A DNA stretch of 64,000 nt from a virus (Duplodnaviria > Heunggongvirae > Uroviricota > Caudoviricetes). Below, in pieces: positions 20,509-51,224 of this stretch. Below the pieces are notes generated by a model that saw nothing but the letters and a program-made list of their open reading frames with translations, was not told where the DNA came from and made no database searches. The position numbers and the translations under genes are program-made. How positions within the stretch are numbered: position 1 is the first letter of the stretch; every line of letters begins with the position of its first letter. The stretch is taken from IMG/VR virus record IMGVR_UViG_2744054962_000001; one strand, written 5' to 3'.

Positions 20509-20565
20509 CCTGCTTCTGTATATATAAATAATAAGTAACTTATTAAATATATATACGGAAGCAGG
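20509..20565. repeat. ~57-bp AT-rich imperfect palindrome, copy A
   Basis: CCTGCTTC arms (rc GAAGCAGG) flank core AATAAGTAACTTATT; ~95% identical copy in opposite orientation at 51170-51224. Confidence 0.8.
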
Positions 20566-20601
20566 CTTAATAAGACATGCCAGACCTAATTAAACACCCC
20601 A

Positions 20602-20642
20602 GAAAACAAGTTGGTTAGCAGATGCAGTAAACAAGTTGTTTT
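20602..20642 (+). promoter_or_regulatory. Two tandem operator palindromes upstream of terminase genes
   Basis: GAAAACAAGTTGGTT at 20602 and AAACAAGTTGTTT (perfect) at 20629. Confidence 0.55.
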
Positions 20643-20681
20643 AGAGCGCATGGACGCGCTCTGTGTGTTTTAGAGGGATCT

Positions 20682-21314
20682 ATGACGGTCGAAAAAGACG
20701 AGGTAAAAACTCGCCTGACACCAGCGGAGTGGGCCGAAGCTGAAGCCAAATGGACGTCAGGCGAATATACACTCTCAAAGCTGGAGGAAGAGTACGGCAT
20801 TCGTCGTGAAACACTCTCCAGACATTTCAAAAAGCGAGGATTAGAGAAAGGCGCGGACTCTGTTGGGAAGATGGTTCGTGAGTCTCTTAAATCTGACGCA
20901 GAGCTTCGCGCTAAAGCCCGTGCGGAAAAGATAGAAGAACGTCGTACACGTTATGACGGCTGGGCGTATGCGTTGGGGCAGATGGTGATGGTCGAAGTCA
21001 CTACGGCCAAACGTGAGGGTAAGCCTTTAGGGGCGATTGAGGATTCTCTCAAGAGCTTACAGAGAGCCAGTAATACCCTTGCAAAATGCTTTGAAGTTTC
21101 GTCCAAAGCATTGGGCATGGATCATGCGGAAAATGACGAGGAAGAAATTCCGAACCTGGTATTTGGTGAGCTTACGCCTTCCCAGGTGGCGAAATTACGT
21201 CAGGAAGACGACGAGCCTGAAATCATCGATGACGAATTGCTTGAGACGTTGGAAGAAGAAGCTCTAAGCGAATTTGATGCGACAGATGATGGAAGTGAAG
21301 GGGAGGACGAATAA
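20682..21314 (+). CDS. Terminase small subunit (putative)
   Basis: N-terminal HTH-like segment, acidic C-terminus, directly upstream of TerL with overlapping stop/start. Confidence 0.55.
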   Translation: MTVEKDEVKTRLTPAEWAEAEAKWTSGEYTLSKLEEEYGIRRETLSRHFKKRGLEKGADSVGKMVRESLKSDAELRAKARAEKIEERRTRYDGWAYALGQMVMVEVTTAKREGKPLGAIEDSLKSLQRASNTLAKCFEVSSKALGMDHAENDEEEIPNLVFGELTPSQVAKLRQEDDEPEIIDDELLETLEEEALSEFDATDDGSEGEDE

Positions 21315-22570
21315 TGGCAATCCCGTCCTCGCTCAGTCTTGTGCAACTGCATTCTGGACAGATGAAAGTCTTCCAGTCTCCGCATCGATTTAAAGTTGTT
21401 TGTGCTGGTCGACGCTGGGGAAAATCCCGGTTGTCGATCTCCACTATTATTCGTGCGGCGGCAAAGGAAAAAAAGCAAAGAGTCTGGTATGTCGCTCCTA
21501 CTTACCAGATGGCTCGCCAGATTTTGTGGGACGATCTACAGGAAGTTCTGCCTCGTAAGTGGGTTAGGAAAAAGAACGACACCACGATGACAATCGTGTT
21601 GAAGAACGGTTCGGAGATCGCCCTCAAAGGTGCTGATAAGCCTGACACTCTGCGCGGCGTAGCGTTGCATTTTGTAGTGCTTGATGAATTTCAGGATATG
21701 AAGGCTGACACCTGGTACAAGGTGTTACGACCTACTCTTTCATCGACACGCGGCGGTGCGCTGATCATTGGTACGCCAAAAGGCTTCTCGGAATTTCACA
21801 AACTGTGGACTATAGGCCAGAACGTAGAGCTGCAAAGAAAGGGACAGTGGAAGAGCTGGCAGTTTGTAACTGCCGATTCTCCGTTTGTACCTACGGCGGA
21901 AATTGAAGCTGCTAAGAACGATATGGACCCCAAATCGTTCGCTCAGGAGTACCTGGCGAGCTTTGAGAACATGTCCGGGCGCGTTTACTACCCGTTCGAT
22001 CGTAACGTGCATGTAAAACCGCTTCAGTTCAACCCTCGGTTGCCTATATGGGTAGGGCAGGACTTCAACATTGACCCGATGTCTTCCGTAATTTTGCAAC
22101 CTCAGCCAAATGGTGAGCTATGGGCAATTGATGAATTGGTGCTCTTTTCCTCTAACACGGCAGAGGTTTGTGATGAGCTTGAGAGACGCTTCTGGCGCTG
22201 GAAATCACAGATAACGGTATTTCCAGATCCGGCAGGTGCTTATCGCCAACATGCTCGCGGGGAGTCTGACGTCGACATATTCAAAGAGAAGGGATTCTTA
22301 CGTGTCGATTATTCGAAAAAGCACCCGCCAATTGCGGATCGTGTTAATGCTGTTAACCGAATGCTGATGACCGCATCTGGAGATATCCGGCTGTATATCG
22401 ATCCGAAGTGCAAGCATTTGATTGATTCACTGGAAAAAGTCATCTACAAGCCTGGAACACGAGATATGGATAAGACAGGTGGCATTGAGCATAGTGCAGA
22501 CGCATTGGGCTATCCAGTACATCGTAGGTATCCAGTCAAAAACCGTGTTATTCTTGGTGGTTCTCGATAG
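21314..22570 (+). CDS. Terminase large subunit
   Basis: 418 aa; Walker A CAGRRWGKSR, Walker B-like VVLDEF; position before portal. Confidence 0.85.
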   Translation: MAIPSSLSLVQLHSGQMKVFQSPHRFKVVCAGRRWGKSRLSISTIIRAAAKEKKQRVWYVAPTYQMARQILWDDLQEVLPRKWVRKKNDTTMTIVLKNGSEIALKGADKPDTLRGVALHFVVLDEFQDMKADTWYKVLRPTLSSTRGGALIIGTPKGFSEFHKLWTIGQNVELQRKGQWKSWQFVTADSPFVPTAEIEAAKNDMDPKSFAQEYLASFENMSGRVYYPFDRNVHVKPLQFNPRLPIWVGQDFNIDPMSSVILQPQPNGELWAIDELVLFSSNTAEVCDELERRFWRWKSQITVFPDPAGAYRQHARGESDVDIFKEKGFLRVDYSKKHPPIADRVNAVNRMLMTASGDIRLYIDPKCKHLIDSLEKVIYKPGTRDMDKTGGIEHSADALGYPVHRRYPVKNRVILGGSR

Positions 22571-22583
22571 GTAAGTAATTATC
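22566..22583 (+). promoter_or_regulatory. ATAAGTA-family promoter-like motif
   Basis: GATAGGTAAGTAATTATC, 14 nt upstream of portal ATG. Confidence 0.45.
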
Positions 22584-22596
22584 TAAGGTTATTCAA

Positions 22597-24171
22597 ATGG
22601 AATTGAACGACAAACAAATTAAGGATCTGGTGGCGCGACGCCACCCGGAATACGAAAAGAAAAAAGAACATTGGGACTTCCTCGCCAGCACTTACGCTGG
22701 CGGGCGTGGTTGGTTTACAGACAATATCTTTCGTTACTTTAAAGAGGGAGATCAGGAGTTTAAGGAGCGAGTTGAACGTGCTTATCGCTTCAACCACACT
22801 CGTGAGGTGGTAAACCTCATCAACAAATATCTCTTTAAAGAAGACATTCATAGAAATATCGAAGAGGCACCAGAGCAGATCCGCAATTTCTGGAAACGTG
22901 CGACTCGCCAGAATGCCTCTATTGACTCATTTATGGCCGCTATTGATTTGCAGTCGTCTATTTACGGTCGCATATGGGTTGTTGTCGATAGCACGATGAG
23001 TGGTGATGTTGAGTCAGTAGCTGACGAGAAAAAGAAAGATGCTCGCGCCTACGCCTACTGGATTTCACCTCAGCAAATGCTGGATGTGGCATGGGACGAC
23101 GACGGGAATATGTTATGGGCGTTAATTGTGGAAGTCGCTCGCGATGACGCAGATCCTTTTACTTCTACAGGTCAGGAATACCAACGTTATCGTCTGTGGA
23201 CACAAAACGAGTGGTATCTGTTCCGTGAGGAAGTGAAGAAGGGCGCTGGTGGAGCAGGTCGCCGTCAGGCAAAAGTTATTTTAGAGGATAGCGGTGAGCA
23301 TAATCTCGGCGTAGTTCCTGTGTTTCCTGTTGATTGTATTGGAGAAAGTGAATCACCGTATTTCAGCCCATCGTTGATCGATGATATCGCTTATCTTGAT
23401 CGTGCGGTTGCAAACTATCTGTCAAACCTTGATGCCATTATTCAGGATCAGACATTTAGCCAGTTGGCTATACCAGTACAGTCGCTTTTACCTGGTGATG
23501 AAAACCACACTAAAGTGCTTGAAATGGGCACAAAGCGAGTCTTCACCTACGATTCTGAAGGTGGAAACCAGCCGTTTTATCTGTCACCAGACCCGAAACA
23601 AGCTCAGATGATCATCACTACGATTAAGACGGTGATTAACGAAATCTACCATTCAGTTGGTGTAGCTGGTGAGCGAACGAAGCAGGACAACGCACAGGGA
23701 ATCGATAACTCATCTGGTGCCGCAAAAATGTATGACTTCCAGCGTGTAAATAGCTTGCTTGTCACAAAAGCAGAGCGTCTGGAAAGGGCTGAACGCCAAA
23801 TCATGCTACTGGTTGCGAAATGGATGGGGGTAGATCTGGACGAAGACCACTCTTTAATTGCGTATCCAGAAAGTTTCGATATTCGTGGCCTTACTGATGA
23901 ATTTTCTGTTGCCGAGAAACTGTCATTACTTCAGGCACCGGACTCTGTACGTCGTCACCAGATGGAAATGCTTATTGAGAAGATTTTCCCGAACATTACT
24001 GAGGCGATGAAAAAGGAATTTGATAAAGATCTCTTGAATTTTCCGCCAAAAAATGATCTAAATACTCTTGAAAATAAGTCAGTACTTACTTATGATCAAG
24101 GCGCAGCCCAAGAAAGCGGGCAAGATCAACCCCGAGGGAATGGGGACTCATCTACTCAAGAGAACGAGTGA
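22597..24171 (+). CDS. Portal protein
   Basis: 524 aa immediately after TerL; AAGG RBS. Confidence 0.75.
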   Translation: MELNDKQIKDLVARRHPEYEKKKEHWDFLASTYAGGRGWFTDNIFRYFKEGDQEFKERVERAYRFNHTREVVNLINKYLFKEDIHRNIEEAPEQIRNFWKRATRQNASIDSFMAAIDLQSSIYGRIWVVVDSTMSGDVESVADEKKKDARAYAYWISPQQMLDVAWDDDGNMLWALIVEVARDDADPFTSTGQEYQRYRLWTQNEWYLFREEVKKGAGGAGRRQAKVILEDSGEHNLGVVPVFPVDCIGESESPYFSPSLIDDIAYLDRAVANYLSNLDAIIQDQTFSQLAIPVQSLLPGDENHTKVLEMGTKRVFTYDSEGGNQPFYLSPDPKQAQMIITTIKTVINEIYHSVGVAGERTKQDNAQGIDNSSGAAKMYDFQRVNSLLVTKAERLERAERQIMLLVAKWMGVDLDEDHSLIAYPESFDIRGLTDEFSVAEKLSLLQAPDSVRRHQMEMLIEKIFPNITEAMKKEFDKDLLNFPPKNDLNTLENKSVLTYDQGAAQESGQDQPRGNGDSSTQENE

Positions 24172-24192
24172 TAAGTAACAAAGGGAATTTTT

Positions 24193-25080
24193 ATGCAACT
24201 GTGGCAAATGCTTTTGGCCCGTCGTGGTCTGATGGATGTTGCTGAAGCGCATGAGCGTGGAGGCGCTGGCGGTGTAGCTGCTGATAATGAGCAGAGTACA
24301 CAAGATCCTGACAAACAGGGTGAACAAAAAGAGCAGCCGAAGGGTGATGACGAATACGCTGGCATGACTCATGAAGAGTTACTGGCCGAACTTCGCAAAA
24401 CCAAGAAAGCTGGTGCTGAACTGCTGAAAGAGAACATGAAGCGCAAAGAGAAAGAGCGCACATTGACCGATCAGCTTGCTCAGTACGGTGACATCGACCC
24501 GGCGCGTGCTCGCCAGCTTTTAGAAGCTGAACAGGCCGCAGAAAACGCACGTCGTGAGGCGGAGCAAGCTGAACTGGAGCGTCGTGGTGAGTTCGATGCT
24601 GTTAAAAAACAGATGATCGAAGCACACCAGGCAGAGCTGGCACAGCGTGACGAACGTTATGCAGCACTGGAAAGTGAAAACGCATCACTGAAATCTCAAT
24701 TAGTCGAGATGACCGTGGGCGCTTCCTTCAGTAACTCTCTCTTCCTACGTGACAAAGTTCTGATGACTCCGGCAAAAGCCCGCGTGATCTACGGTTCTCA
24801 TTTTGAAGTGGGTGAAGACGGTAGCGTAGTGGGTTATGACAAACCGGCAGGTTATAAAGAACGAGCTGTTCTGGTTGACGGTGAAGGTAAGCCGTTGCCG
24901 TTTGAATCCGCGATTGAACGCATTGTGCGGGCAGATCCGGAAGCTGACGCATTGATGCGTAGCGAAGCCAAGCAGGGTGTAGGCTCACATTCCAAATCGA
25001 CCTACACAATATCCCAACCGAAGAACAAGTCGACTATGGATAAGTTGGCCTCCGGTCTGGGGAAAATTGGACTTAAGTAA
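24193..25080 (+). CDS. Scaffolding protein (putative)
   Basis: Charged, coiled-coil-like middle region; between portal and major capsid. Confidence 0.5.
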   Translation: MQLWQMLLARRGLMDVAEAHERGGAGGVAADNEQSTQDPDKQGEQKEQPKGDDEYAGMTHEELLAELRKTKKAGAELLKENMKRKEKERTLTDQLAQYGDIDPARARQLLEAEQAAENARREAEQAELERRGEFDAVKKQMIEAHQAELAQRDERYAALESENASLKSQLVEMTVGASFSNSLFLRDKVLMTPAKARVIYGSHFEVGEDGSVVGYDKPAGYKERAVLVDGEGKPLPFESAIERIVRADPEADALMRSEAKQGVGSHSKSTYTISQPKNKSTMDKLASGLGKIGLK

Positions 25081-25105
25081 CATCTAAATCAAAGGGAATT
25101 GATAG

Positions 25106-25981
25106 ATGCCATTACTTCGTGAAGAAGCTGAAAAGCTGTCTAACAACGAACTTGAACAGGGCGTGATTGAAACCATCATCGATCGCGATGACCTGTTTGC
25201 CATCCTGCCTTTTATGAAAATTAATTCAAAGGCATATCTGTACAACCGTGAAAAAACGCTGAGTGAAGCTACCTTCATCGACGTTAACGACACCATCCCT
25301 GAAGGTGCAGCAACCTTCGAAGAATGCGTTGCGAAACTGCGTATTCTGGCTGGTGACGTAGACGTTGATAAATTCCTGGCGACCACTATGGCCGACACCA
25401 ACAACCAGTTGGCTATTCAGGTTCGTCAGAAAGTTAAAGGTCTGGCTCGTGCGTTCCGTCGCAACCTGATTTTGGGTGACTCCAGCTCCAACAACAAGGC
25501 GTTTGACGGCATTCCACGCCTGATGCACGCAGATCAGAAGATCGATATCGCCGGTGCATCTATGACTTTCTCTATGTTCGACGAACTGGTCGATGCGGTG
25601 AAAGATCTTGGTGCTGACTGCATCATGATGCGTTCAGAGCACCTGCGTGCTTACCGTGCGCTGCTGCGTACAGTAAACGTAGGCCCGTCTGAAATCATGA
25701 TGGAGAACTTCGGTCGTCCGATGCTGTGTCATAACGGCGTTCCGTTCATCATCAACGACTTCATCCCGACCGATTCTGGCAAAGCAAGCATCTACTGCCT
25801 GCACCTGTCAGAAGAGAACGGCGTTACTGGTCTGTATGGCGGCGACAACGCAGGTATCGTTGTTGAAAACATTGGCACTGTACAGAACAAAGACGCAGTA
25901 CGTACCCGTGTGAAGTGGTACTGCTCTCTGGCGAATAAGCACGATAAGGCTATCGCTGCACTGACCAATGTAAAAATTTAA
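25106..25981 (+). CDS. Major capsid protein
   Basis: 291 aa, follows scaffold, strong terminator after it. Confidence 0.75.
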   Translation: MPLLREEAEKLSNNELEQGVIETIIDRDDLFAILPFMKINSKAYLYNREKTLSEATFIDVNDTIPEGAATFEECVAKLRILAGDVDVDKFLATTMADTNNQLAIQVRQKVKGLARAFRRNLILGDSSSNNKAFDGIPRLMHADQKIDIAGASMTFSMFDELVDAVKDLGADCIMMRSEHLRAYRALLRTVNVGPSEIMMENFGRPMLCHNGVPFIINDFIPTDSGKASIYCLHLSEENGVTGLYGGDNAGIVVENIGTVQNKDAVRTRVKWYCSLANKHDKAIAALTNVKI

Positions 25982-25991
25982 TCAGTGCAGT

Positions 25992-26009
25992 AGATAAGTA
26001 ATTATCTAT
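25992..26009 (+). promoter_or_regulatory. ATAAGTA-family motif (TAGATAAGTAATTATCTA)
   Basis: Palindromic copy of motif between capsid stop and terminator. Confidence 0.45.
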
Positions 26010-26013
26010 GTTA

Positions 26014-26042
26014 AAGGGTGGGCTATACGCCCACCCTTTTTG
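26014..26042 (+). terminator. Rho-independent terminator after major capsid gene
   Basis: GGGTGGGC-TATAC-GCCCACCC followed by TTTTT. Confidence 0.75.
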
Positions 26043-26054
26043 TAGGAGCAAGAA

Positions 26055-26975
26055 ATGCCAGAACAAAAGATGAAGATTACGGAAGAGGCATTTTCGGATT
26101 TTACGGGGCATATGTGCCGCGCCGGATTTACCAATTCTATCTCCGATGAACCTTTAACCGAGCGGCAACAAAGTCAGCTATCTGCTTGTTTGCAGGCGGT
26201 TCCCCTCTCCCAATCCGTAAACATAACCCCGGCTTCACCGTCAGTTTTGGTTGGGAAAACTGTTCAACTTAGTGCAGGTATTAGTATGGGTAAGAGTGCC
26301 AGTTCATTCACCTGGAAGTCAGCGAATGATCAAATTGCAACCGTTAACGGCACTGGATTAGTAACTGGTGTAGCACCAGGCAAAGTAAAAATTACTGCAA
26401 CTGATCAGGAAACCCAGCTTTCCGCGTCAGTGGAAGTCACCGTAAATCCGGTAGCCGTTCAATCCGTAACGGTAACGCCAGACTCAACCTCTGTTGAGAA
26501 AGGGAAATCAGTCAGTCTGAAAGCGAATGTTCAGCCGTCAAATGCGACGAATAAGGCTGTTACCTGGTCTTCAAAAAATGAAGATAAGGCAACGGTAGAC
26601 CAGAGCGGGAACGTTACTGGTGTAGAAGTTGGCACTGCGACGATTGAGATCGTTTCCCAAGATGGCAGCAAAAAGGCAACTGCAACGGTGGAAGTAACTG
26701 CGCCTGTTGTGGCTGTTACCGCCGTCGAAATCGACCCAAATAGCACAACCGTTGAGGCAAACAAAACTGTTCAGCTGACCGCAAATGTCGAGCCGGCAGG
26801 AGCCACAAATAAAACCGTTACTTGGGAATCCAAAAATACCGAGTTTGCAACGGTTGACAGCGAAACCGGTGTTGTAACTGGTGTTGCGGCTGGTACTGCC
26901 ACAATCGAGGTTACTACCCAAGATGGTAGCCACAAAGCGACAGCAACTGTAGAAGTTACTGCCGCACAGGAATAA
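26055..26975 (+). CDS. Ig-like (BIG2-type) repeat protein, likely head decoration protein
   Basis: Three ~85-aa repeats of type VTVTPDSTSV..KAVTWSSKNEDKATVDQSGNVTGV. Confidence 0.65.
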   Translation: MPEQKMKITEEAFSDFTGHMCRAGFTNSISDEPLTERQQSQLSACLQAVPLSQSVNITPASPSVLVGKTVQLSAGISMGKSASSFTWKSANDQIATVNGTGLVTGVAPGKVKITATDQETQLSASVEVTVNPVAVQSVTVTPDSTSVEKGKSVSLKANVQPSNATNKAVTWSSKNEDKATVDQSGNVTGVEVGTATIEIVSQDGSKKATATVEVTAPVVAVTAVEIDPNSTTVEANKTVQLTANVEPAGATNKTVTWESKNTEFATVDSETGVVTGVAAGTATIEVTTQDGSHKATATVEVTAAQE

Positions 26976-27019
26976 CCGATATTGGGCGGCTTTCGCCGCC
27001 CAAGTGGAGAGAAAGCGTT

Positions 27020-27454
27020 ATGAAACCAGCAAAAATTGTTTTATTAGAACCGCAATTTTCCGGTTATTCGGGAATGCTGTGTGGCGTTCAGTTCGAGAAC
27101 GGGGTATCCGTAGCGGAGTTGCCTTTTATCGATCAGCAGAGGATTTGTGCTTCAATGCGAGCGTCAACAGTAGAGGGCAAAAATGTTTCTCCGTCTGCCG
27201 CATACAGTGATCGTGGTGAATTGACAGCAGACCTGATTACCGAGCCAGCAGCACCTGACATTGTGCCAATGAAACGTGGGACACCAGATGAACCGGCCAA
27301 ACAGATCCAGACTTTCACACGAGAAGAGTTGGAGTCAATTGCAGACAATGAAGGCATTGCCGGTCTACGTGTGATTGGTAATCAGGTTGGTGTCAAAGCG
27401 AAAGGAATTGTCGAGATGATTGAAGGCATCCTGAAAGCACAAGGCGGTGAGTAA
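27020..27454 (+). CDS. Head-tail joining region protein (hypothetical)
   Basis: GGAGAG RBS; position in head-completion block. Confidence 0.45.
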   Translation: MKPAKIVLLEPQFSGYSGMLCGVQFENGVSVAELPFIDQQRICASMRASTVEGKNVSPSAAYSDRGELTADLITEPAAPDIVPMKRGTPDEPAKQIQTFTREELESIADNEGIAGLRVIGNQVGVKAKGIVEMIEGILKAQGGE

Positions 27455-29175: not shown

Positions 29176-29176
29176 T

Positions 29177-42469: not shown

Positions 42470-42490
42470 ATATCTAGGAGCAAAGGATAA

Positions 42491-44878
42491 ATGTGGTACA
42501 GAGAAGGTACAATAAATCTCACTAAAGGAAATAAAACTGTAGTGGGAACAGGCACAGCCTGGGGAGTGACGGCGAACGGCGTCCTTCCAGGTATGATATT
42601 GATTGGCCCCGATAATAAGTTATATGAAATAAAATCAATCGAGAGTGACACTTCGTTAACTCTTGTTGAAGCCTACGGTGGCAGCACCCAAACAAATGTT
42701 CCGTGCAGAATAATTACGACCTATGAAGGTGATTTGACCCAATTTAGTGCTCGTTTTACTGCGCTTATGTCTCGCATGTCAGCCGATTCAAAAATGATGC
42801 GTAGTTGGCTGACTGCTGTGGATGAAATAACAATTGAGCGTGAAGATGGCACGGAATTAACCGTAAAATCCCTTACGCAGATCGTTAATGAGCACAATGA
42901 GAACCTAGAATGGTATAAAGAAAATACTCCCATAATTAACACCGCTGCACAAAAAGCTAAAGAGGCGGCAGCGAGCGCAACAGCGGCCAAAAAATCAGAA
43001 ACTAACTCAAAAGCGAGTGAGACAGCTTCAAAGACTAGCGAAACTAATGCGAAAAATAGCGAGGTAGCTGCAAAATCGAGTCAGAGTGCTGCCGCAAACT
43101 CCGCTACCGCAGCAAAAAACAGCCAGGATGCAGCAGCCGAAAGCGAGAGTGCTGCAGCTGGTTCTGCGACTTCAGCAGCTGGATCAGCAACTGCTGCGGC
43201 TAACAGCCAGAAAGCCGCGAAGACGAGCGAAACTAACGCAAAGTCCAGCCAGACGGCAGCGAAGACCAGCGAAACAAATGCCAAAGCCAGCGAAACTGCG
43301 GCGAAAAACAGTCAGGATGCAGCAGCCCAAAGCGAGAGTGCCGCAGCTGGTTCTGCAAGTGCGGCGGCTTCTTCTGCCTCTGCATCAGCCAACAGTCAAA
43401 AAGCTGCAAAAACCAGTGAAACCAACGCAAAGGCGAGCGAGACTGCGGCGGCTAACTCAGCGAAAGCATCGGCAGCAAGCCAGACGGCTGCAAAAGCAAG
43501 TGAAGACGCAGCCAGAGAGTATGCAAGCCAGGCTGCGGAGCCGTATAAACAAGTTTTGCAGCCGCTTCCCGATGTGTGGATACCGTTTAACGATTCACTG
43601 GATATGATTACGGGCTTTTCGCCGTCATATAAAAAGATTGTTATTGGTGATGATGAAATAACGATGCCTGGCGATAAGGTTGTAAAGTTTAAACGCGCAT
43701 CAACTGCCACATATATCAATAAATCAGGCGTATTTAGTGTTGCTAAAATTGATGAGCCACGATTTGAAAAAGAAGGTTTATTGATTGAAGGACAGCGCAC
43801 TAACTATTTTGTTAAATCCAATATCCCCGCTGAATGGACGAGTACCAGCAATATCGATAAAACTAATAATGGTGTTGATGAATTTGGTTTTTCATATGCC
43901 AAAATGCGAACAAAAGATAATATGACAGGACAATCATCTGCACTTAGTCTGCATACATGCAGTGCATCCCGGGGGATTGATGTTAGTGGCGATAATAAGT
44001 ATTGCACTGTTTCATGCAGGGTTAAAGCTCCTGATGGTCTTCGTTGTCGTTTGCGTTTTGAAAAATACGATGGGTCGGTTTATACATTTTTAGGAGATGC
44101 TTATTTAACTTTCGGAACTCTGATAATAGAAAAAACTGGCGGAGCAGCCAATAGAATAGCAGCTACTGCAACTAAAGATCCGGTTACAGGGTGGATTTTC
44201 TATGAGGCAACTATAGAAGCTGTTGAAGGTGAAACCTTAATTGGCGCAATGATTCAGTATGCGCCGAAAAAAGGTGGTGTAACTGAAGCGGGAGATTATA
44301 TTTACCTTGCAACACCACAATTTGAAAACGGCGGATGTGCTTCATCTTTTGTTATTACGACAACTGTACCCGCAACCCGCTCCAGTGATATGGTGACGAT
44401 CCCAACTGAAAATAATATCTATAATAGACCGCTTACGTGCCTGGTCGAGGTTAATAGAAATTGGGGCGATATTCCTCCTAATGTAGCACCGCGTATTTTT
44501 GATTTTTCTGGTGTGCCACCTATTGAGTCAATTACATACGCTTTTAACACAACTGAGAAATATTACGGTCAGCTTTATATGCAAACTTATAAAGCGTCGA
44601 CAAGTACTTACGTTTCTAGTGTGTTTGCTGGTCGAACTGATGTTCGAAAATTCATTGGTGGTTTTAATATTTATTCTGATGGTACTAAACGAGTAGTTTC
44701 TAACGGTGAGGCTACTAAAACCATGAAAACGGAGTGGACGGGCGTAAAAACACGGACCTTTATTCGAATTGGAGGTCAAGCCACATCGGGAACTCGTCAT
44801 CTATTCGGCCATTTGAGAAATCTTCGTCTCTGGCATAAAGAATTAACTGATGCGCAAATGGGGGAGAGTATTAAATGA
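42491..44878 (+). CDS. Tail fibre protein with Ala/Ser/Lys-rich tandem repeats
   Basis: 795 aa; repeated AAKNSQDAAAESESAAAGSA / KTSETNAK units. Confidence 0.8.
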   Translation: MWYREGTINLTKGNKTVVGTGTAWGVTANGVLPGMILIGPDNKLYEIKSIESDTSLTLVEAYGGSTQTNVPCRIITTYEGDLTQFSARFTALMSRMSADSKMMRSWLTAVDEITIEREDGTELTVKSLTQIVNEHNENLEWYKENTPIINTAAQKAKEAAASATAAKKSETNSKASETASKTSETNAKNSEVAAKSSQSAAANSATAAKNSQDAAAESESAAAGSATSAAGSATAAANSQKAAKTSETNAKSSQTAAKTSETNAKASETAAKNSQDAAAQSESAAAGSASAAASSASASANSQKAAKTSETNAKASETAAANSAKASAASQTAAKASEDAAREYASQAAEPYKQVLQPLPDVWIPFNDSLDMITGFSPSYKKIVIGDDEITMPGDKVVKFKRASTATYINKSGVFSVAKIDEPRFEKEGLLIEGQRTNYFVKSNIPAEWTSTSNIDKTNNGVDEFGFSYAKMRTKDNMTGQSSALSLHTCSASRGIDVSGDNKYCTVSCRVKAPDGLRCRLRFEKYDGSVYTFLGDAYLTFGTLIIEKTGGAANRIAATATKDPVTGWIFYEATIEAVEGETLIGAMIQYAPKKGGVTEAGDYIYLATPQFENGGCASSFVITTTVPATRSSDMVTIPTENNIYNRPLTCLVEVNRNWGDIPPNVAPRIFDFSGVPPIESITYAFNTTEKYYGQLYMQTYKASTSTYVSSVFAGRTDVRKFIGGFNIYSDGTKRVVSNGEATKTMKTEWTGVKTRTFIRIGGQATSGTRHLFGHLRNLRLWHKELTDAQMGESIK

Positions 44879-45156
44879 AAGATTTAACGCTCAAATTTGC
44901 AGACAGGGCCGACTTTTCGGCCTTTATGGAGAGTATTGGCTATTATGATGACGAGTCGATGCAGGGTGATATTCTTATTGACGTGATAGGTAACGTGTAC
45001 AAAGAAACCGGAGAACTGACTGAAGATGGCGAACCGGTATGTGTTAAGGAGGACGGATATTTTGTAAACGTGCGCATCATTAATGATGCAAAAAAATCGT
45101 CAATATTCGATAAATACGCGATTGTTGTTGAGCATCAACTTCGTGGCTGGATGTGA
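44875..45156 (+). CDS. Hypothetical protein (93 aa), possibly fibre-associated
   Basis: ATGA overlap with tail fibre stop. Confidence 0.45.
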   Translation: MKDLTLKFADRADFSAFMESIGYYDDESMQGDILIDVIGNVYKETGELTEDGEPVCVKEDGYFVNVRIINDAKKSSIFDKYAIVVEHQLRGWM

Positions 45157-45165
45157 GGGAGACAA

Positions 45166-45870
45166 ATGGCTACATCGACAGTAATTCCAGGAGACATCAC
45201 CACGTTAAAGGGAGATGTCAGTAAAGCCAAGGAAGATATTTCCTCAATTAACGGAAAAGTATCAACGCTTCAGACTGATATGACCAGTGCAAAGCAGGAT
45301 ATCAGCACCAGATACACAAAAACTGAAGTTGATAATAAGCTGAAAAACAAAGTGGAAGTGAACGATCTGGAAAGTGGTCGTTATGGTGGAGATTTTTACC
45401 CGCTGACTGGTCGTGAAGCGTTTTATTTGTGGGGATTGGGCACGACTACAGCGGCGGCAAACCTTTATCTTAATCCTGACCCCGCAATTTCGTCTGTACT
45501 GCGGTCCACATCGTCTATCCGCTATAAACATTCAGTAGAGACGATAGATTCGGAGCACGCCGATCTCATTTTCAAGATGCGCCCTGTGTGGTACAGGTCG
45601 CAATGCGAAAATGACAGGCGCGATTGGGGATTCTATGGATTGATTGCCGAGGAAGTAGGAGAAATTGCCCCTCAGTTTGTTCACTGGCGACCAGCTAACG
45701 AGAATGATGCTCCTGAAGCTATTTCCAGCAATGGCCTTGTTGCCGAAGGTGTAATGTACGAACGTCTGGTTGTTCCACTGATTCACCATATCCAGAAACT
45801 GACTGAAAGAGTTGATGAACTTGAGTCAGAATTAAAGTTGTTATCAACTTCCCGAAGCGATATTGGATAA
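45166..45870 (+). CDS. Fibre-like protein with C-terminal intramolecular chaperone (peptidase S74-like) domain
   Basis: N-terminal coiled coil; C-terminus SSIRYKHSVETIDSEHADLIFKMRPVWYRS..GLIAEEVGEIAPQFVHW resembles the autoproteolytic chaperone domain of phage fibres. Confidence 0.55.
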   Translation: MATSTVIPGDITTLKGDVSKAKEDISSINGKVSTLQTDMTSAKQDISTRYTKTEVDNKLKNKVEVNDLESGRYGGDFYPLTGREAFYLWGLGTTTAAANLYLNPDPAISSVLRSTSSIRYKHSVETIDSEHADLIFKMRPVWYRSQCENDRRDWGFYGLIAEEVGEIAPQFVHWRPANENDAPEAISSNGLVAEGVMYERLVVPLIHHIQKLTERVDELESELKLLSTSRSDIG

Positions 45871-45880
45871 AGGAGGAGTA

Positions 45881-46165
45881 ATGGATATAACACCTTTCCT
45901 TCATGCACTTTGTGCTGTGGCTGCGCAGGTACTGGTTGGTCTTTTTACCGGAAACTGGGCTTACGGGGCGATAGCCGGTTGTACGTTCTTCATTGCTCGT
46001 GAACATACCCAGGCAGAATATCGCTGGATTGAAATATTCGGGCATGGCAAGCGAATGAATATGCCGTGGTGGGGCGGTTTTGATCCGCGCGCGTGGGATG
46101 TAGCAAGTCTGATGGATTTTGCGATTCCACTTTTAGCGTGCACATTATTATATATTTTTATTTAA
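45881..46165 (+). CDS. Small membrane protein (94 aa)
   Basis: AGGAGG RBS; two hydrophobic segments. Confidence 0.5.
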   Translation: MDITPFLHALCAVAAQVLVGLFTGNWAYGAIAGCTFFIAREHTQAEYRWIEIFGHGKRMNMPWWGGFDPRAWDVASLMDFAIPLLACTLLYIFI

Positions 46166-46263
46166 TATAAGATTAACTGAGATATAGCTTACGCAAAGAA
46201 GGTAATAAATATAAAGAGAGATGTTCTGAGGTAATTTATTGTTGGTGTTTAAGGTTATTTACA

Positions 46264-46286
46264 GATAGGTAAGTGCATACCTATAT
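46264..46286 (+). promoter_or_regulatory. ATAAGTA-family motif (ATAGGTA..TACCTAT inverted repeat)
   Basis: Upstream of lysis cassette. Confidence 0.45.
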
Positions 46287-46346
46287 AAAAAAGATAAAAT
46301 GTGATATAAATCCGCCATCCCGATTTGACTTTTCATGGAGGAAAAT

Positions 46347-46670
46347 ATGTCGAACGAGATGGCGGGCGTAACAACAGAGCAAGTTGAGCGCATTGCCGCG
46401 ATCGTTGCTCGGGAGGTTGTCGGCAAATTAGGTAAAGAGCTACGTGAAGAAATTGGCCAGGAGGTCAACGATCAGCTGAAAACCTACTTTGGTGATATGA
46501 CCCCGGCGCAACATAGTATTCAACACTCCAACCTGGACAAACTCCTTAACCGGTTAGATTCCATCTCCAGTGGGTTCTTTGGCGGCATTGTTTCTAAAAT
46601 AACGTCGTTCATTATTACCGCACTGCTTTTGGGGTTAGCCGCGTATGGCGTGAAAAATGGACTGCAATAA
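46347..46670 (+). CDS. Putative holin or lysis regulator (C-terminal transmembrane helix)
   Basis: GGAGGA RBS; hydrophobic C-terminus; first gene of lysis block. Confidence 0.4.
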   Translation: MSNEMAGVTTEQVERIAAIVAREVVGKLGKELREEIGQEVNDQLKTYFGDMTPAQHSIQHSNLDKLLNRLDSISSGFFGGIVSKITSFIITALLLGLAAYGVKNGLQ

Positions 46671-46683
46671 CAGGAGATCAAGG

Positions 46684-47376
46684 ATGAAGACTCCGAGAGG
46701 CATTCGTAACAATAACCCCGGTAATCTTGATAAAGGATCGCCGTGGCAAGGTCTGGTTGCTAATCCAGACGAACCCCGCTTTTGCACGTTTAAAGACCCT
46801 GTTTGGGGGATTCGTGCGCTGGCGGTGACTCTAATTACCTACCACGACAAACGTCGCGCAAAAGACGGCTCAAGTATCGATACCATTCGTGAAGTTATTG
46901 AACGCTGGGCACCGCCGAACGAAAATAACACTGACGCCTATATTAATGAGGTGTCCAAAGCAGTTGGTGTAACCGCAGACATGATTATCGATCTGCATGA
47001 TTACGACATCCTTCGACCTTTAGTTGAGGCAATCATTCGCCACGAGAATGGCCGAGGCCCGCTAAAAACGCTGAACACCTGGTATGCGGCAGAAGTTATT
47101 GAGGAAGGTCTGCGTCGAGCTGGCGTCGTTAAGCCGGTGAAAACGGTGAAGGCTGTTCCTGTAACGAAAGAAACCGCAGGCGCAACTGTTACAGCAGGTA
47201 TTGGTCTGGCGCAGCTTGCCGATGTTATGCCGCAGATTTCCGCTGCTATGGATAAAGCACAAGGTCATATCTCTAGCGGGGATACAGTACGCATCATCTT
47301 CGGTATTGCCACTATTGTTGTGGCAGGATTCATTGCCTGGTCGCAGGTAAGAAAACACCAGAAAGGGATGGTCTAA
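46684..47376 (+). CDS. Putative endolysin (by position), with C-terminal hydrophobic helix
   Basis: Between holin-like gene and spanin pair; AGGAG RBS; catalytic family not assigned. Confidence 0.4.
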   Translation: MKTPRGIRNNNPGNLDKGSPWQGLVANPDEPRFCTFKDPVWGIRALAVTLITYHDKRRAKDGSSIDTIREVIERWAPPNENNTDAYINEVSKAVGVTADMIIDLHDYDILRPLVEAIIRHENGRGPLKTLNTWYAAEVIEEGLRRAGVVKPVKTVKAVPVTKETAGATVTAGIGLAQLADVMPQISAAMDKAQGHISSGDTVRIIFGIATIVVAGFIAWSQVRKHQKGMV

Positions 47377-47377
47377 T

Positions 47378-47629
47378 ATGCTAGGCAGCCTGATGACAAA
47401 GCTAAAAGTTGCTTTGATTACGCTGGCTGCCGTTCTTTTCGTTCTTGTCGGCGCTTACACGATGGGCGGGAATGCGGCGCGACGAGCAATGGAAGAGAAG
47501 GCAAAACAGGAAGACAGAAAACGACTTCAAAACACAGTGAAAGTGGTGAATGAGACGAGCAGTAAAATACGTCAGAAAGATGCTTCTGCCGTTCATCGTG
47601 AGTTGTATGATAAGTGGGTGCGTCATTAA
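47378..47629 (+). CDS. i-spanin (Rz-like)
   Basis: N-terminal TM helix then charged coiled coil; o-spanin-like gene embedded in +1 frame. Confidence 0.6.
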   Translation: MLGSLMTKLKVALITLAAVLFVLVGAYTMGGNAARRAMEEKAKQEDRKRLQNTVKVVNETSSKIRQKDASAVHRELYDKWVRH

Positions 47630-47765
47630 ACCACAAACAGCCAGCGTGTTGTTCTGCGATGGGGCTGAGCCTATCTATATCAGCAATAATGATGTAATGA
47701 CTGAAGAAACCGAACGCCAAATCCTTTTTCACAATACGATGGGAGAGAGGGTTTGTGGTTGGTGA
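47550..47765 (+). CDS. o-spanin (Rz1-like lipoprotein)
   Basis: Lipobox ISGC after short hydrophobic leader (real start possibly ATG 47580); overlaps i-spanin 3' end. Confidence 0.55.
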   Translation: MRRAVKYVRKMLLPFIVSCMISGCVIKPQTASVLFCDGAEPIYISNNDVMTEETERQILFHNTMGERVCGW

Positions 47766-47772
47766 TGTCGAA

Positions 47773-47794
47773 GTTCCCCTCAAATGAGGGGAAC
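47773..47794. terminator. Bidirectional hairpin between lysis genes and toxin gene
   Basis: GTTCCCCTC-AAAT-GAGGGGAAC. Confidence 0.55.
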
Positions 47795-47797
47795 ACA

Positions 47798-48319
47798 TTA
47801 TTCTTCGAACAATTTTTCGATAGATTTTGTAGGATAGAACAAAGAACGCTCGTTGTTACCAACCAGCTGGATAAAGCCTAAACTTTTATAAAACGCCTTG
47901 GCTTTGTCATTTAACGCCTCAACGAAAAGTCCATGAATGCCTACAGCAAGAGATGCATTGTACACAACGCGCATTGCATGTGTTACAAGCATTGAGCCAA
48001 ATCCTTGACCTTGAAGGGACTTGTCCAAAGCCAGCCTACCCAAAGTAACACTTGGAACATTCCGATAAGGAACCTTCTTTTGTTTGCTTCTTGAAGGTAA
48101 GGACTCCTTTTCAAAACAACTACCTGACAAAGTGTAATATCCTAACACTTTTGGCCTTTCTTCTTGAGTGCAAAGCACATAAGCACGAAGAATTTTTCCC
48201 TCATGCTGCCTTTTTAAGTGGTTGGCTAAAAAGGCGTTTAGTGACTCTTCGCCGCAATCAAAACCGTTTAGATCATAATCTTTCTCTCCAGAGAAAATCT
48301 CTATCGTTGTATTGCTCAC
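47798..48319 (-). CDS. GNAT-family acetyltransferase toxin (TacT/AtaT-like)
   Basis: GNAT motif LQGQGFGSML; GTG start 7 nt after antitoxin stop. Confidence 0.75.
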   Translation of the reverse strand: MSNTTIEIFSGEKDYDLNGFDCGEESLNAFLANHLKRQHEGKILRAYVLCTQEERPKVLGYYTLSGSCFEKESLPSRSKQKKVPYRNVPSVTLGRLALDKSLQGQGFGSMLVTHAMRVVYNASLAVGIHGLFVEALNDKAKAFYKSLGFIQLVGNNERSLFYPTKSIEKLFEE

Positions 48320-48326
48320 GAGTAAA

Positions 48327-48596
48327 CTACTCCATGCTTTTCAGACGATCAGCAGCTCGTTTCAGCTTGTCGTTCGGTGCCGGAGGATTGCTTATAGCGT
48401 CCATAACCAGATTCCAGGATTCTTCATTCAGAACTAGTCTACGGTGTTGCTCTATAACTTTCACGGCACGTTCAGATGCACTGCTAACCATAAACTGAGT
48501 AATGCTCTGGTTAGACATTGCGGCAGCTTCCTCGATGATGCTTTTATCGTCATCGGTTAATCTCAAATCGATGCGCTGCTTTTTTAGTGCTGACAT
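48327..48596 (-). CDS. RHH antitoxin (DUF1778/TacA-like)
   Basis: 89 aa from ATG 48596 (AGGAGG RBS); immediately upstream of GNAT toxin. Confidence 0.7.
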   Translation of the reverse strand: MSALKKQRIDLRLTDDDKSIIEEAAAMSNQSITQFMVSSASERAVKVIEQHRRLVLNEESWNLVMDAISNPPAPNDKLKRAADRLKSME

Positions 48597-48864
48597 GTAT
48601 TCCTCCTGATGGCCGTGATGTAGGAAGGCCATCAATCTCCTCTGTTCAAACTGAGTTTTCGACTCAAAAATTACTTTAAAAGGCTATAGCCCATTACGTG
48701 TGCATTATCAAATTGTGTACGGCATATCACCGTACTTGTAATATAGAGGTCATTGTTACTTTTTTCAACAGACAAATACAAGCTATGATTGCCAATTGTT
48801 AATCACAACCTACCATTTAACCTTTACACCGCAGCCGTAGGCATTTAGGCTATATCACATATAA

Positions 48865-48879
48865 GAAAACAAGTTGTTT
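48865..48879. promoter_or_regulatory. Operator palindrome GAAAACAAGTTGTTT upstream of parA
   Basis: Perfect AAACAAGTTGTTT core 36 nt before parA ATG. Confidence 0.55.
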
Positions 48880-48914
48880 CAGACGATAATTATATACGCA
48901 AAGGGAACTCTCCA

Positions 48915-49583
48915 ATGACCAAGATCTTTGTGGTTGGCGGCACAAAGGGCGGGCCTGGCAAATCCACCGTTGCCCAGCAAATTGCCGTTTGCCTGAAAGT
49001 CAAAAAGAAGAAGAAGGTTTATATTACCGATATAGATATTCAGCGCACGACAACGAGCTGGTGTGAAGACCGTCGACAGAACGAAGACCTTGAGCTGATT
49101 CCTTTTGCATACGTTCAGGATGACATCATTAAGCACCTAAAATCGCTTCAGGGTAGAGCTGAGTTTGTAGTGGTAGATGCTGGTGGCTTCGACTCCGAAA
49201 TTCAGCGACAAGCGATGCTGATGGCTGACGTTATCATTATCCCGCTGCGTCCTAAGCGTCGTGATTTGAAATCTTTACGTGACATCGATCCTATTATCGA
49301 CAATGTTCGCAATGTAAACGATAAAGTGAAGGTCCGCGCGGTCATGAACCAGTGCCCGGCTTTGCCATCACAAGTGTCTCGCATTCTGGCGGCTAAAGAG
49401 ATTGTTGAGACGTTTGGAATCGAGTCTGCGCCAGTCAATCTATATAACCGCAACGTCTATGATGATGCGGAAGAGTCTGGTCGTTCTATCTTTGAAATGA
49501 CCGGTAGCGAGCGCGACAAAAAGGCGGAAGCCGAGTTTGAAGAATTTGTAGATTATCTGTTGAGTCTGGAGGAAGAAGAATAA
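48915..49583 (+). CDS. parA: ParA-family partition ATPase (small, type Ib-like)
   Basis: Deviant Walker A GGTKGGPGKST; 222 aa. Confidence 0.85.
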   Translation: MTKIFVVGGTKGGPGKSTVAQQIAVCLKVKKKKKVYITDIDIQRTTTSWCEDRRQNEDLELIPFAYVQDDIIKHLKSLQGRAEFVVVDAGGFDSEIQRQAMLMADVIIIPLRPKRRDLKSLRDIDPIIDNVRNVNDKVKVRAVMNQCPALPSQVSRILAAKEIVETFGIESAPVNLYNRNVYDDAEESGRSIFEMTGSERDKKAEAEFEEFVDYLLSLEEEE

Positions 49584-49942
49584 TGTCCATGAAAATGGGT
49601 GACCTAGCAAAGCGCAAAGAGCCTGATGCACCGGCTAAGAACACAACTCCTTTGCGCCAACCAGTCAGACCACAAGGACGCCCGACTCGTGGCAAAGAGA
49701 AAATTAAAAGCCGCACTATGTCACTGGAAGACGAATACTTCGAGCTTCTGGAAATGATGAAGTTTATCCCTCGTTTCGAGAAGTTCACCCGCTCTGATGT
49801 GATTCGTGCTGCTATTTTCCATCTGGCAGAGAAGTCACCGCAGGAAATCGAGGACATCGTAAAGCTGAACGAGGCGATCACAGCTGCCGATGTCACGATG
49901 CGTACCGATGAAATTAAACGCGAGTTGATGAAGAAAGGTTAA
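49583..49942 (+). CDS. Small partition partner protein (RHH/ParG-like, putative)
   Basis: TAATG overlap with parA; basic N-terminal tail then RHH-like segment. Confidence 0.5.
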   Translation: MSMKMGDLAKRKEPDAPAKNTTPLRQPVRPQGRPTRGKEKIKSRTMSLEDEYFELLEMMKFIPRFEKFTRSDVIRAAIFHLAEKSPQEIEDIVKLNEAITAADVTMRTDEIKRELMKKG

Positions 49943-49945
49943 TAA

Positions 49946-49978
49946 TGTGGGCTGTCTAGCCCACATTATTTTAATTAA
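49946..49978 (+). terminator. Rho-independent terminator
   Basis: TAATGTGGGC-TGTC-TAGCCCACATTA followed by TTTTAATT. Confidence 0.6.
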
Positions 49979-49993
49979 AGTGGAGTGATAATT

Positions 49994-50746
49994 ATGCATT
50001 CGTTAGTATTTGCATTTAAAAACATACTCAAGAATGTTATAAACATACTAGGGATGTTAAATATTTTTTTGTCTGTGAGGGTGAGGAGAAAAGATATAAA
50101 AGATAAATTAAAGGAACTTAACAAAGAAAAAGAACAATTAAAAAGCGAAGAAATTATTATTGATTTATACAAGAAAAAACTCGCATCTAGCAAGGGGAAA
50201 GCTAATGATAAAATCAAAGGAAAAATAATTCACTATATTATTGCTAGAGAGTTGGGGAATGATCCTGATAATGAAGATTTGCGACATAATCTTTTTACAA
50301 AGATAAAAGAATCAGAAGAACAGGTTGAAGTTCTGGTTCATCAAAGAGAAGTAAGTGAGCAGGCGAACAAAAAAGAAACGGTTGTCAATTTGTTTTTATT
50401 GTATGAAAAAAATAAATTGTTTAAAGCTAAGGGGTTGGCTGTGTTTCTTATAGTTATAAACTTAATTATAGTTGCGACTCTCGATCTTCCAGCTTGGTCA
50501 TTGATTATAAGTTTTTTTATTCTCTCTTTGATTATGTTGAAAGATCAGATACTTACTATTCGTGTCTCTAAAGGATATTTTGGCACAAGTGCGTATGAAG
50601 CGGTTCAATTGCTTAAATTCATCAGAGAAAATTCAGACAAATTTGACTCAGATGATAATGACGGTAGCCCACGACGGATATTGAATCCGAAGGGAACAAC
50701 AAAAAAATCAGACAACCTATTCGATAAAGGGTGGCAAAATGTTTGA
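49994..50746 (+). CDS. Hypothetical membrane protein (250 aa), AT-rich
   Basis: GGAG RBS; K/E-rich N-terminal region then two hydrophobic segments. Confidence 0.5.
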   Translation: MHSLVFAFKNILKNVINILGMLNIFLSVRVRRKDIKDKLKELNKEKEQLKSEEIIIDLYKKKLASSKGKANDKIKGKIIHYIIARELGNDPDNEDLRHNLFTKIKESEEQVEVLVHQREVSEQANKKETVVNLFLLYEKNKLFKAKGLAVFLIVINLIIVATLDLPAWSLIISFFILSLIMLKDQILTIRVSKGYFGTSAYEAVQLLKFIRENSDKFDSDDNDGSPRRILNPKGTTKKSDNLFDKGWQNV

Positions 50747-51161
50747 CCTTGACGCCATCACTAAGTTCTTAAATCAGTGTTTTGATCTACTTTTGCTCAA
50801 GCAGCCTTTAAGAACTGTTTTCGGAATACTGATTGGTTTCATTATTTTTGTTTTTGTTTACACGTTTAGGTTTGCGATAGCTCAAGATTTTTATGAAATA
50901 GATGGTGTGCATTACGCTGCATGTTTCGTCATCGGTGTTTTAGTTGTTCACACAAGAACATTTTTTGACGTTATCAAGGGCACCGCAGTTGATGAAGAAA
51001 TAGATAGTATGATCAGAGTTATTACGAAGCAGCCACACCTATCTAACCATCAAAAAAACATAATGATTGCTGAAATACTTCAAAAAGAAATTGCAGCCAT
51101 AAGTCAAAAGAGATTGGATAAAGTTGCACAAGAAATAACGGAGAAAAAGACAACTGATTAA
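50739..51161 (+). CDS. Hypothetical membrane protein (140 aa), AT-rich
   Basis: Start overlaps upstream stop; two predicted TM helices. Confidence 0.5.
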   Translation: MFDLDAITKFLNQCFDLLLLKQPLRTVFGILIGFIIFVFVYTFRFAIAQDFYEIDGVHYAACFVIGVLVVHTRTFFDVIKGTAVDEEIDSMIRVITKQPHLSNHQKNIMIAEILQKEIAAISQKRLDKVAQEITEKKTTD

Positions 51162-51169
51162 TTTAATTA

Positions 51170-51224
51170 CCTGTTTCTGTATATAAATAATAAGTAACTT
51201 ATTAAATATATATACGGAAGCAGG
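51170..51224. repeat. ~55-bp AT-rich imperfect palindrome, copy B
   Basis: CCTGTTTCTGTATATAAATAATAAGTAACTTATTAAATATATATACGGAAGCAGG; flanking TTAAAGAC indicates inverted orientation relative to copy A. Confidence 0.8.

Follow-up and report, generated by a model that had tools for sequence, protein, structure and literature searches.

The question raised by IMGVR_UViG_2744054962_000001, a 64,000-nt stretch of phage DNA (hereafter the window), is what two almost identical AT-rich palindromes, A and B, do at two gene boundaries some 30 kb apart. An initial annotation of the window took them for an inverted pair bracketing the morphogenesis block and proposed for them packaging, terminator–promoter, origin or recombination functions. 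Here they are assigned to a family of hairpins that are probably insulating transcription terminators at module boundaries, evolving in concert; termination is the most likely function, which is the outcome that the initial annotation had named as speaking against its own proposals. The window belongs to an SSU5-like phage-plasmid. The 3-kb stretch around copy A is 98–99% identical to the Escherichia phages CMS-2020a, PhiR41_1 and Cyrano and ~80% identical to Salmonella phage SSU5 and to Klebsiella phage-plasmids, and the + strand carries nearly all genes both in the window and in SSU5-type relatives. The two palindromic cores are as follows.

20509–20565, + strand: core of palindrome A, 57 nt, consisting of CCTGCTTCTG, a 37-nt AT-rich interior and CGGAAGCAGG.
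51170–51224, + strand: core of palindrome B, 55 nt, consisting of CCTGTTTCTG, a 35-nt AT-rich interior and CGGAAGCAGG.

Both copies lie where they had first been placed, and pairwise alignment bears out their ~95% identity, the differences amounting to one C/T substitution and one TA indel. Forty-five nucleotides are identical on the + strand (20521–20565 and 51180–51224), and no match, even with up to three mismatches allowed, arose in 100 dinucleotide-preserving shuffles of the window. Their description as long imperfect palindromes also stands, since both fold into stable hairpins as + strand RNA, A at -36.3 kcal/mol (z = -8.5) and B at -26.1 kcal/mol (z = -7.3). The B hairpin is favoured on this strand (-17.8 kcal/mol on the - strand) because two of its pairs are G·U only there. 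The inverted orientation claimed for the copies, however, does not hold for the cores, which are direct repeats: their direct alignment is exact over 45 nt, whereas the inverted alignment reaches only 83%, and the internal asymmetries (a T·G pair at position 9 and AAA facing AAA) are oriented alike in A and B. The inverted reading is limited to a ~8-nt AT-rich flank, TTTAAAGA on the left of A and TCTTTTAAA on the right of B, with a 1-nt indel. Nor do A and B form a special pair of brackets around the morphogenesis block, because a third copy, C, is found outside the window, ~32 kb upstream of A, at 13435–13487 of PhiR41_1. Palindrome C folds at -25.7 kcal/mol as + strand RNA, and z values over the three palindromes range from -4.2 to -8.5.

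The three sites share a common anatomy. Site A precedes the small terminase gene terS and the morphogenesis block, site B is situated between the par operon plus cargo and the DnaB–primase block, and site C follows an adenine-methylase gene and precedes the next + strand gene. The cores start 24 (A), 8 (B) and 23 (C) nt past + strand stop codons and end 108–117 nt ahead of the next + strand start codon. In the shared order, the stop codon is followed by an outer motif, (G)TCTGGGAG, a spacer of 11–20 nt and the core, made of CCTGCTTCYG, 31–37 nt of AT-rich sequence and CRGAAGCAGG; a spacer of 12–30 nt then leads to CTCCCAGAC. In RNA, the core corresponds to a stem of ~25 bp with CCUGCUUCYG/CRGAAGCAGG as its GC-rich base. 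Three elements accompany the cores in the window.

20487–20586, no strand assigned: composite palindrome A, ~100 nt, with the outer inverted repeat GGTCTGGGAG (20487–20496) / CCAGACC (20580–20586).
51225–51231, + strand: T-run of B (TCTTTTA), directly 3′ of hairpin B.
51243–51249, no strand assigned: right outer motif of B, CCAGAAC, the counterpart of CTCCCAGAC at the other sites.

The ~100-nt palindrome at A arises from partial complementarity of the spacers that flank the core. The RNAalifold consensus for this site takes in the outer stem, with double changes in 4 of 26 pairs, among them a pair that extends the core stem and switches between G–C and A–U. The left outer motif is missing at B in the window because the variable cargo region abuts the core. 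In Klebsiella-type C, the right flank resembles a mirror image of the left flank, and a ~14-nt T-rich insert lies beside the core. With Rfam 15, the palindromes reach only sub-threshold matches to generic microRNA-precursor hairpins, and in the window just three tRNAs reach a family's gathering score.

In the proposed mechanism, each element would close the last gene of a + strand transcription unit at a functional-module boundary. Once transcribed, it would fold into the ~25-bp stem with its GC-rich base, directly followed at B and C by a U-run, and strong factor-independent termination would be expected at these two sites. In the plasmid-prophage state, in which partition, toxin–antitoxin and other cargo genes are on, the hairpins would block read-through into lytic genes that are kept off; the modules so insulated would be the morphogenesis genes behind A and the replication genes behind B, with the par operon and the cargo as the expressed genes in front of B. 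Insulation is the role suggested because almost all genes are co-oriented. Two properties of intrinsic terminators, namely a stable GC-based stem-loop on the transcribed strand and a position at the co-oriented 3′ end of a unit, behind a stop codon, are found at A, B and C. The T-run is conserved across lineages at B as TCTTTT(A/T/C), with a mean of 5.7 T in the first 10 nt (range 4–8), and at C as CTGTTTT or CTTTTT, with a mean of 4.6 T of 10.

Transcription across B can be followed in Cyrano, as which plasmid pLF82 of E. coli LF82 has been re-annotated, with per-gene RNA sequencing (RNA-seq) values tabulated (Misson et al. 2023, PMC9928086). In ten samples of LF82 with Cyrano, CYRAN_30 shows log2(fpkm+5) values (fpkm, fragments per kilobase per million) of 5.7–10.4 (S1 Table, PMC9928086). 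The co-oriented CYRAN_31 shows values of 2.3–4.2 in those ten samples, at or near zero fpkm (PMC9928086); it is the orthologue of the 249-amino acid (aa) open reading frame (ORF) that follows B in the window and is essentially silent in the lysogen. CYRAN_30 ends ~25 nt before palindrome B and CYRAN_31 starts 118 nt after it, and the values of the two genes differ by 2.9–7.9 log2 units (by at least 5.7 units in 8 of 10 samples), the transcript drop across B being at least 100-fold in 8 of the 10 samples. The 194-nt gap between the genes contains just hairpin B followed by TCTTTT, and the Cyrano sequence flanking B is ~98% identical to the window. The hairpin itself presumably causes the stop at B, and site C presumably stops transcription as B does; site A, which has no U-run, may be a weaker stop or an RNA 3′-end or processing hairpin.

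Decayed copies in Klebsiella lineages bear on the same point. In the K. pneumoniae pKpn plasmid NZ_CP117483.1, A, B and C each retain only the right half, TTAAATATATATAGGAGCCAGGC, and a canonical GC-rich hairpin with a T-run stands behind the half element at B and C, with long T-runs at A. In the K. oxytoca plasmid pCAV1752-111, site A has an imperfect hairpin followed by TCTGTTTTTTTTAGTTTTTT, and canonical terminators stand behind the half element at sites B and C; both the pKpn and the pCAV lineages have lost the left arm or retain it in degenerate form. In E. coli lineages, the B gap of Cyrano folds without any other strong hairpin, and a simple terminator scan of the B gap of the window found none. 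The decayed palindrome is thus backed by canonical terminators or T-runs and the intact one at B stands alone, which is the pattern predicted by a terminator role. At site B of NZ_CP117483.1 (L533 16150–16400), the order is the right half-element, CTCCCAGA, a canonical terminator, GTCTGGGG, the left-arm-like CCTTGCTCTGG and an AT-rich stretch; the halves are arranged the ‘wrong’ way round, as would fit either recombination between two elements or their splitting and permutation by an insertion.

Several observations weigh against termination as a full account of the family. Intrinsic terminators do not typically have a mostly-AU stem of ~25 bp. Conservation of the arms extends beyond pairing to the sequence itself, over three paralogous sites and several genera, and the core is surrounded by the outer inverted repeat TCTGGGAG/CTCCCAGAC; neither would be required of a plain terminator. 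Site A lacks a + strand T-run in every lineage sampled (mean 3.0 T of 10, maximum 4). In pKpn, the same altered right arm, ATATATAGGAGCCAGGC, occurs in the same orientation at all three sites despite the loss of the hairpin, and this shared altered half-site hints at a sequence-specific reader. The G·U strand bias is inconsistent, since B favours the + strand and Klebsiella C favours the - strand, the latter because the core is flipped there. In the Cyrano RNA-seq, the drop at site A is only ~2–4-fold at low expression, and site C is uninformative because its upstream gene is silent, as is the other flanking gene. The step at B, measured as per-gene values in a relative and not in the window, localizes the stop to the 194-nt gap and not to the hairpin. 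Gene conversion between copies can account for both the arm conservation and the half-site retained in pKpn. The same RNA-seq table (PMC9928086 S1 Table) records very high lysogen expression for CYRAN_43 (723-fold over background), the LexA-like CYRAN_98 and the 44-aa CYRAN_81, which sits ~450 nt downstream of site C.

Some of these features would also suit hairpins acting in RNA processing or stability, which would be cut by RNase III or block 3′ exonucleases and so separate messages. The ~25-bp stems with a conserved internal loop (AAA facing AAA), the interrupted helix of ~100 nt at A, the absence of a U-run from A and the intergenic placement right behind stop codons are all compatible with this idea. 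So is the paralogous similarity between sites, the RNase III sites of T7 also resembling one another in sequence, and an RNA-seq step would likewise be expected if the cleaved downstream RNA were degraded. However, termination is favoured by the U-runs kept at B and C and by the canonical terminators that replace decayed copies, and processing as the primary role appears improbable, although the two mechanisms are not mutually exclusive.

The distribution of the family was assessed in IMG/VR loci sampled via neighbouring proteins, without use of the palindrome itself. The palindrome is present upstream of terS (A) in 74/74 informative loci, upstream of the 249-aa gene (B) in 78/79 loci and downstream of the methylase gene (C) in 68/78 loci; synteny of the three sites holds throughout the SSU5 supergroup, without an empty site having been observed at any of them. 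A pattern scan of 185,579 species, with one genome per species, confined the element to SSU5-type replicons (in Kluyvera, in Buttiauxella, in Yersinia pestis pMT1 and in mis-binned contigs of metagenome-assembled genomes), the other matches being unrelated, either by chance or as unrelated palindromes bearing the same arms. No description of the element was found in the searchable literature on SSU5, pHCM2 and pMT1.

Among 72 unique cores, the 14 outermost stem pairs are Watson–Crick in 60–72 cores, except at position 9 (Y opposite R), and in two distant lineages compensatory changes in the arms (GCCTTGCTCCCATA/TATGGGAGCAAGGC and GCCGTGTTCCCATA/TATCGGAGCACGGC) have left the palindrome perfect. 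Cores also flip relative to their flanks: the arms of Klebsiella C show the pattern of site A in reverse complement, and a flipped core is seen at one B locus (L124). In Klebsiella, sites A and C have the arm variant CCTGCGTC in common but differ in their interiors. Such core flips and lineage-specific arm variants common to several sites indicate that the copies exchange sequence, and gene conversion between copies would explain why A and B are nearly identical and why arm variants recur at several sites within a lineage. Two possible discriminators between an RNA and a DNA function were set aside. The G·U strand bias is made indecisive by the core flips. Covariation is real in two distant lineages and in the stem-extending pair, yet it does not discriminate because a DNA site bound by a dimer also predicts symmetric changes.

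The arms bring in another explanation, according to which the palindromes are DNA sites for a phage-encoded sequence-specific protein, serving as lytic origins or as regulatory or condensation sites, with inverted 10-bp arms and outer repeats around an AT-rich unwinding centre and with termination as an incidental effect. It is consistent with the conservation of the arm sequence far past pairing needs, with the composite symmetric architecture and its outer repeats, with the altered half-site ATATATAGGAGCCAGGC present at all three pKpn sites after hairpin loss, and with the variant CCTGCGTC common to Klebsiella A and C while the interiors differ. The genomic context fits as well, B lying directly upstream of the 249-aa/DnaB/primase operon and two ParB_N proteins and an 88-aa putative DNA-binding protein being encoded beside A. 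However, no protein partner could be named, and no clusters of arm-like, iteron-like repeats were found elsewhere in the genome. The cumulative GC skew of a complete Klebsiella plasmid is monotonic, without a switch at A, B or C, but it is a weak test of an origin here, the skew being dominated by uniform gene orientation. The case for co-evolution of arms and protein is weakened because the right arms of pCAV1752-111 differ from each other (AGAGCACGGC, GGAGCCAGGC and AGAGCAAGGC) and because the scan of the L409 lineage found only one copy with altered arms, so that a concerted arm change is not shown there. The strand-specific T-runs, the terminators behind decayed copies and the RNA-seq step are also not predicted. 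On balance, a DNA-binding role of this kind is unlikely. Its more elaborate form, in which composite palindromes of ~100 bp would be read by a phage protein co-evolving with the arms, for example at three origins or at packaging or condensation sites, and the U-runs at B and C would be secondary, is judged rather unlikely.

The position of A, 117 nt upstream of terS, raises the possibility of a packaging initiation site (pac or cos), and the SSU5 and Cyrano records begin inside A, window position 20549 being record position 1 in Cyrano and 2 in SSU5. The corresponding accessions, NC_018843 (SSU5) and OV696614 (Cyrano), are linearized 18–19 nt from the right end of A, and in several IMG/VR draft contigs a palindrome copy lies no more than a few bases from the end. 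However, the Cyrano record is a re-annotation of the pLF82 plasmid sequence and shares its starting base with SSU5, so that it is not an independent end determination, and the virion-derived records pJN2-26, vB_KpnS_p4727 and PhiR41_1 start elsewhere. Breaks at these repeats are common among draft contigs, which is what a ~55-nt repeat would lead one to expect, and the record and contig ends at the palindromes are probably an assembly or annotation artefact. Two more copies lie far from terS, and the large terminase TerL is of the Terminase_6N (T4-like) type and not lambda-like cos. As a guide to the packaging mode, the typing of TerL yields only this generic assignment. Virome coverage of Cyrano was at contamination level (PMC9928086). 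A packaging role has no independent support and is very improbable.

The copies might also be recombination sites that invert or exchange the ~30 kb between them, as had been envisaged at the outset, or that delete it, or they might form a selfish repeat resembling a MITE. One observation in favour of recombination concerns the region just upstream of B.

49947–51169, + strand: variable cargo slot, extending from the stop codon of the par operon to the left edge of B.

Here the slot holds 253-aa and 140-aa ORFs (phrog_22270 and phrog_17322), the latter followed by B; in relatives, it holds a minus-strand gene in PhiR41_1 and CYRAN_30 in Cyrano, and >15 different left flanks occur. Homology with close relatives breaks at both edges of the slot, the left edge of core B being the exact breakpoint of this hypervariable region, and the core flips and shared lineage variants imply that copies recombine or convert. 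Yet the breakpoint at B is explained by flanking homology alone, which suffices for cargo exchange, and the cores are direct repeats in the window. When chimeric A × B junction queries were compared with PLSDB, the inversion junction, with ≥80% of the query to be covered in one place, occurred in 0/435 and the deletion junction in 0/244 matching records, so that neither inversion nor deletion between A and B is borne out. Native flanks are present on both sides in all 74 site-A loci, the scan of species genomes found the element absent from chromosomes and from other mobile elements, and all three sites are syntenic. Inverted crossover sites with both isomers in nature, which characterize inversion systems of the Cin/cix, Gin/gix and Hin/hix type, were not found, nor were the many dispersed, polymorphic copies of a MITE- or REP-like mobile repeat, each genome having three syntenic copies. 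Recombination or selfish spread is accordingly a highly unlikely function of the family.

The features that surround the palindromes in the window place A and B within their transcription units.

20218–20484, + strand: 88-aa ORF (phrog_900), last gene of the unit ending at A; its Cyrano counterpart CYRAN_123 is annotated as DNA-binding.
20587–20621, + strand: copy of a promoter/operator-like motif, AGAAAACAAnnTGKTT with an upstream TAATTA, between A and terS.
20642–20673, + strand: GC-rich hairpin, GAGCGCATGGACGCGCTC + TGTGTGTTTT, immediately before the terS ribosome-binding site.
20682–21314, + strand: small terminase gene terS (phrog_867, DNA-binding protein), first gene downstream of A.
51333–52082, + strand: 249-aa ORF (phrog_2500), first gene of the DnaB–primase replication block downstream of B.

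These features decide what remains of the ‘bidirectional terminator–promoter unit’ suggested by the initial annotation. Its terminator half agrees with the position behind stop codons, the T-runs at two of three sites, the terminators of decayed copies and the RNA-seq drop at B. As for the promoter half, the promoter/operator-like motif that begins 22 nt after palindrome A belongs to a separate repeat family. That family has eight copies of the form (TAATTA/GATAAT)-N8-12-AGAAAACAAnnTGTTT, located 20–60 nt ahead of start codons, among them the start codons of terS, parA and dnaB (5481–5515, 7990–8024, 8474–8508, 10128–10162, 10613–10647, 20587–20621, 48850–48884 and 52077–52111). Judged from its sequence, the motif looks like a sigma-70 -10 element combined with a palindromic operator (AAACAA..TTGTTT) of a global repressor or activator. 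The hairpin in the terS leader is kept in all lineages with compensatory changes (GAGCGC..GCGCTC to GAGCAC..GTGCTC) and has the look of a terminator or attenuator in the leader of the late operon, which suggests antitermination control of that operon. With the motif and the leader hairpin following it, A looks like the end of the upstream unit, to be followed by a regulated late promoter.

Further regulatory repeats occur elsewhere in the window. Pairs of canonical terminator hairpins, 82–86% identical, lie behind small ORFs (9985–10023/10456–10494 and 11735–11769/12006–12040), each with the promoter/operator motif ~100 nt further on; the small-gene region is evidently built of repeated terminator–promoter cassettes, and the repetition of regulatory cassettes is evidently characteristic of this genome. 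That other terminators here come as repeat families followed by the motif also speaks for the terminator reading of the palindromes. A sigma-70 scan gave weak AT-rich matches only. Resemblances to T7-like, T4-late (TATAAATA) and MotA-box promoters were dropped because of misfits in spacing, no cognate polymerase or factor having been looked for. At 17293–20208, two tandem overlapping ParB_N paralogues of 232 and 233 aa precede an ABC-type ATPase and a 296-aa protein; this cluster, just upstream of the 88-aa gene and terS, is kept in SSU5, Cyrano and Klebsiella plasmids and is separate from the ParA/119-aa partition pair at 48915–49942. Three adjacent tRNA genes (60254–60498) are followed by a 78-nt inverted repeat at 60504–60581 (25-nt arms, 88% complementary, ~-39 kcal/mol).

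Comparison with known systems situates the family among terminators and repeated hairpins. Like intrinsic terminators, including the insulators that bound morons in temperate phages, the element forms a GC-based hairpin after a stop codon, with a U-run at B and C, a large transcript drop across B and canonical terminators in place of the decayed palindrome. Unlike them, it has a mostly-AU stem of ~25 bp, the usual stem being GC-rich and of 5–14 bp, and it shows the same sequence at three distant sites across genera, outer inverted repeats and an A copy without a U-run. The PeSL cassettes of T4-type phages, said to have been described by Arbiol, Comeau and Krisch in 2010, are reportedly numerous near-identical stem-loops that include an early promoter, lie at gene or module boundaries beside hyperplastic regions and are prone to recombination between copies. 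The present family resembles them as near-identical stem-loop regulatory cassettes repeated at phage module boundaries next to variable regions, but has three syntenic copies, a separate promoter-like motif and no recombination products between copies that could be found.

Likeness to REP/BIME elements of enterobacteria, which are able to stabilize upstream mRNA or to stop transcription, lies in the conserved imperfect palindromes behind stop codons in transcribed intergenic DNA and in concerted evolution. However, REPs are GC-rich, 20–40 nt long and present in hundreds of chromosomal copies, whereas the present elements are AT-rich, ~55 nt long (~100 nt with flanks) and present in three copies within one supergroup. 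An ERIC-like resemblance, ATAAGTAAGTAACT, occurs downstream of B. The RNase III sites of T7 early mRNAs are also long intergenic hairpins with internal loops, mutually similar within the genome, but they lack the U-run and the perfect GC clamp. Finally, the AT-rich centre, inverted GC-rich boxes and several copies per genome recall oriS/oriL of herpes simplex virus (HSV) and the telomere-resolution sites of N15 type. Unlike at HSV origins and N15 sites, no link to an initiator or protelomerase and no GC-skew signature were found, the PLSDB relatives NZ_CP117483.1 and CP018360.1 as well as PhiR41_1 have been deposited in circular form, and the strand-specific T-runs would go unexplained.

Although the mechanism itself is not of a new kind, the hairpins, if they act as terminators, would be the punctuation that keeps maintenance and cargo genes on and the adjacent lytic modules off in a phage-plasmid with nearly all of its genes on one strand. 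Their role would account for the free variation of the cargo slot ahead of B, and their repetition would explain the assembly breaks at these repeats, the SSU5 reference record included. Their recognition would also aid the annotation of transcription units in SSU5-type elements, which carry resistance and toxin–antitoxin cargo in clinical Enterobacteriaceae.

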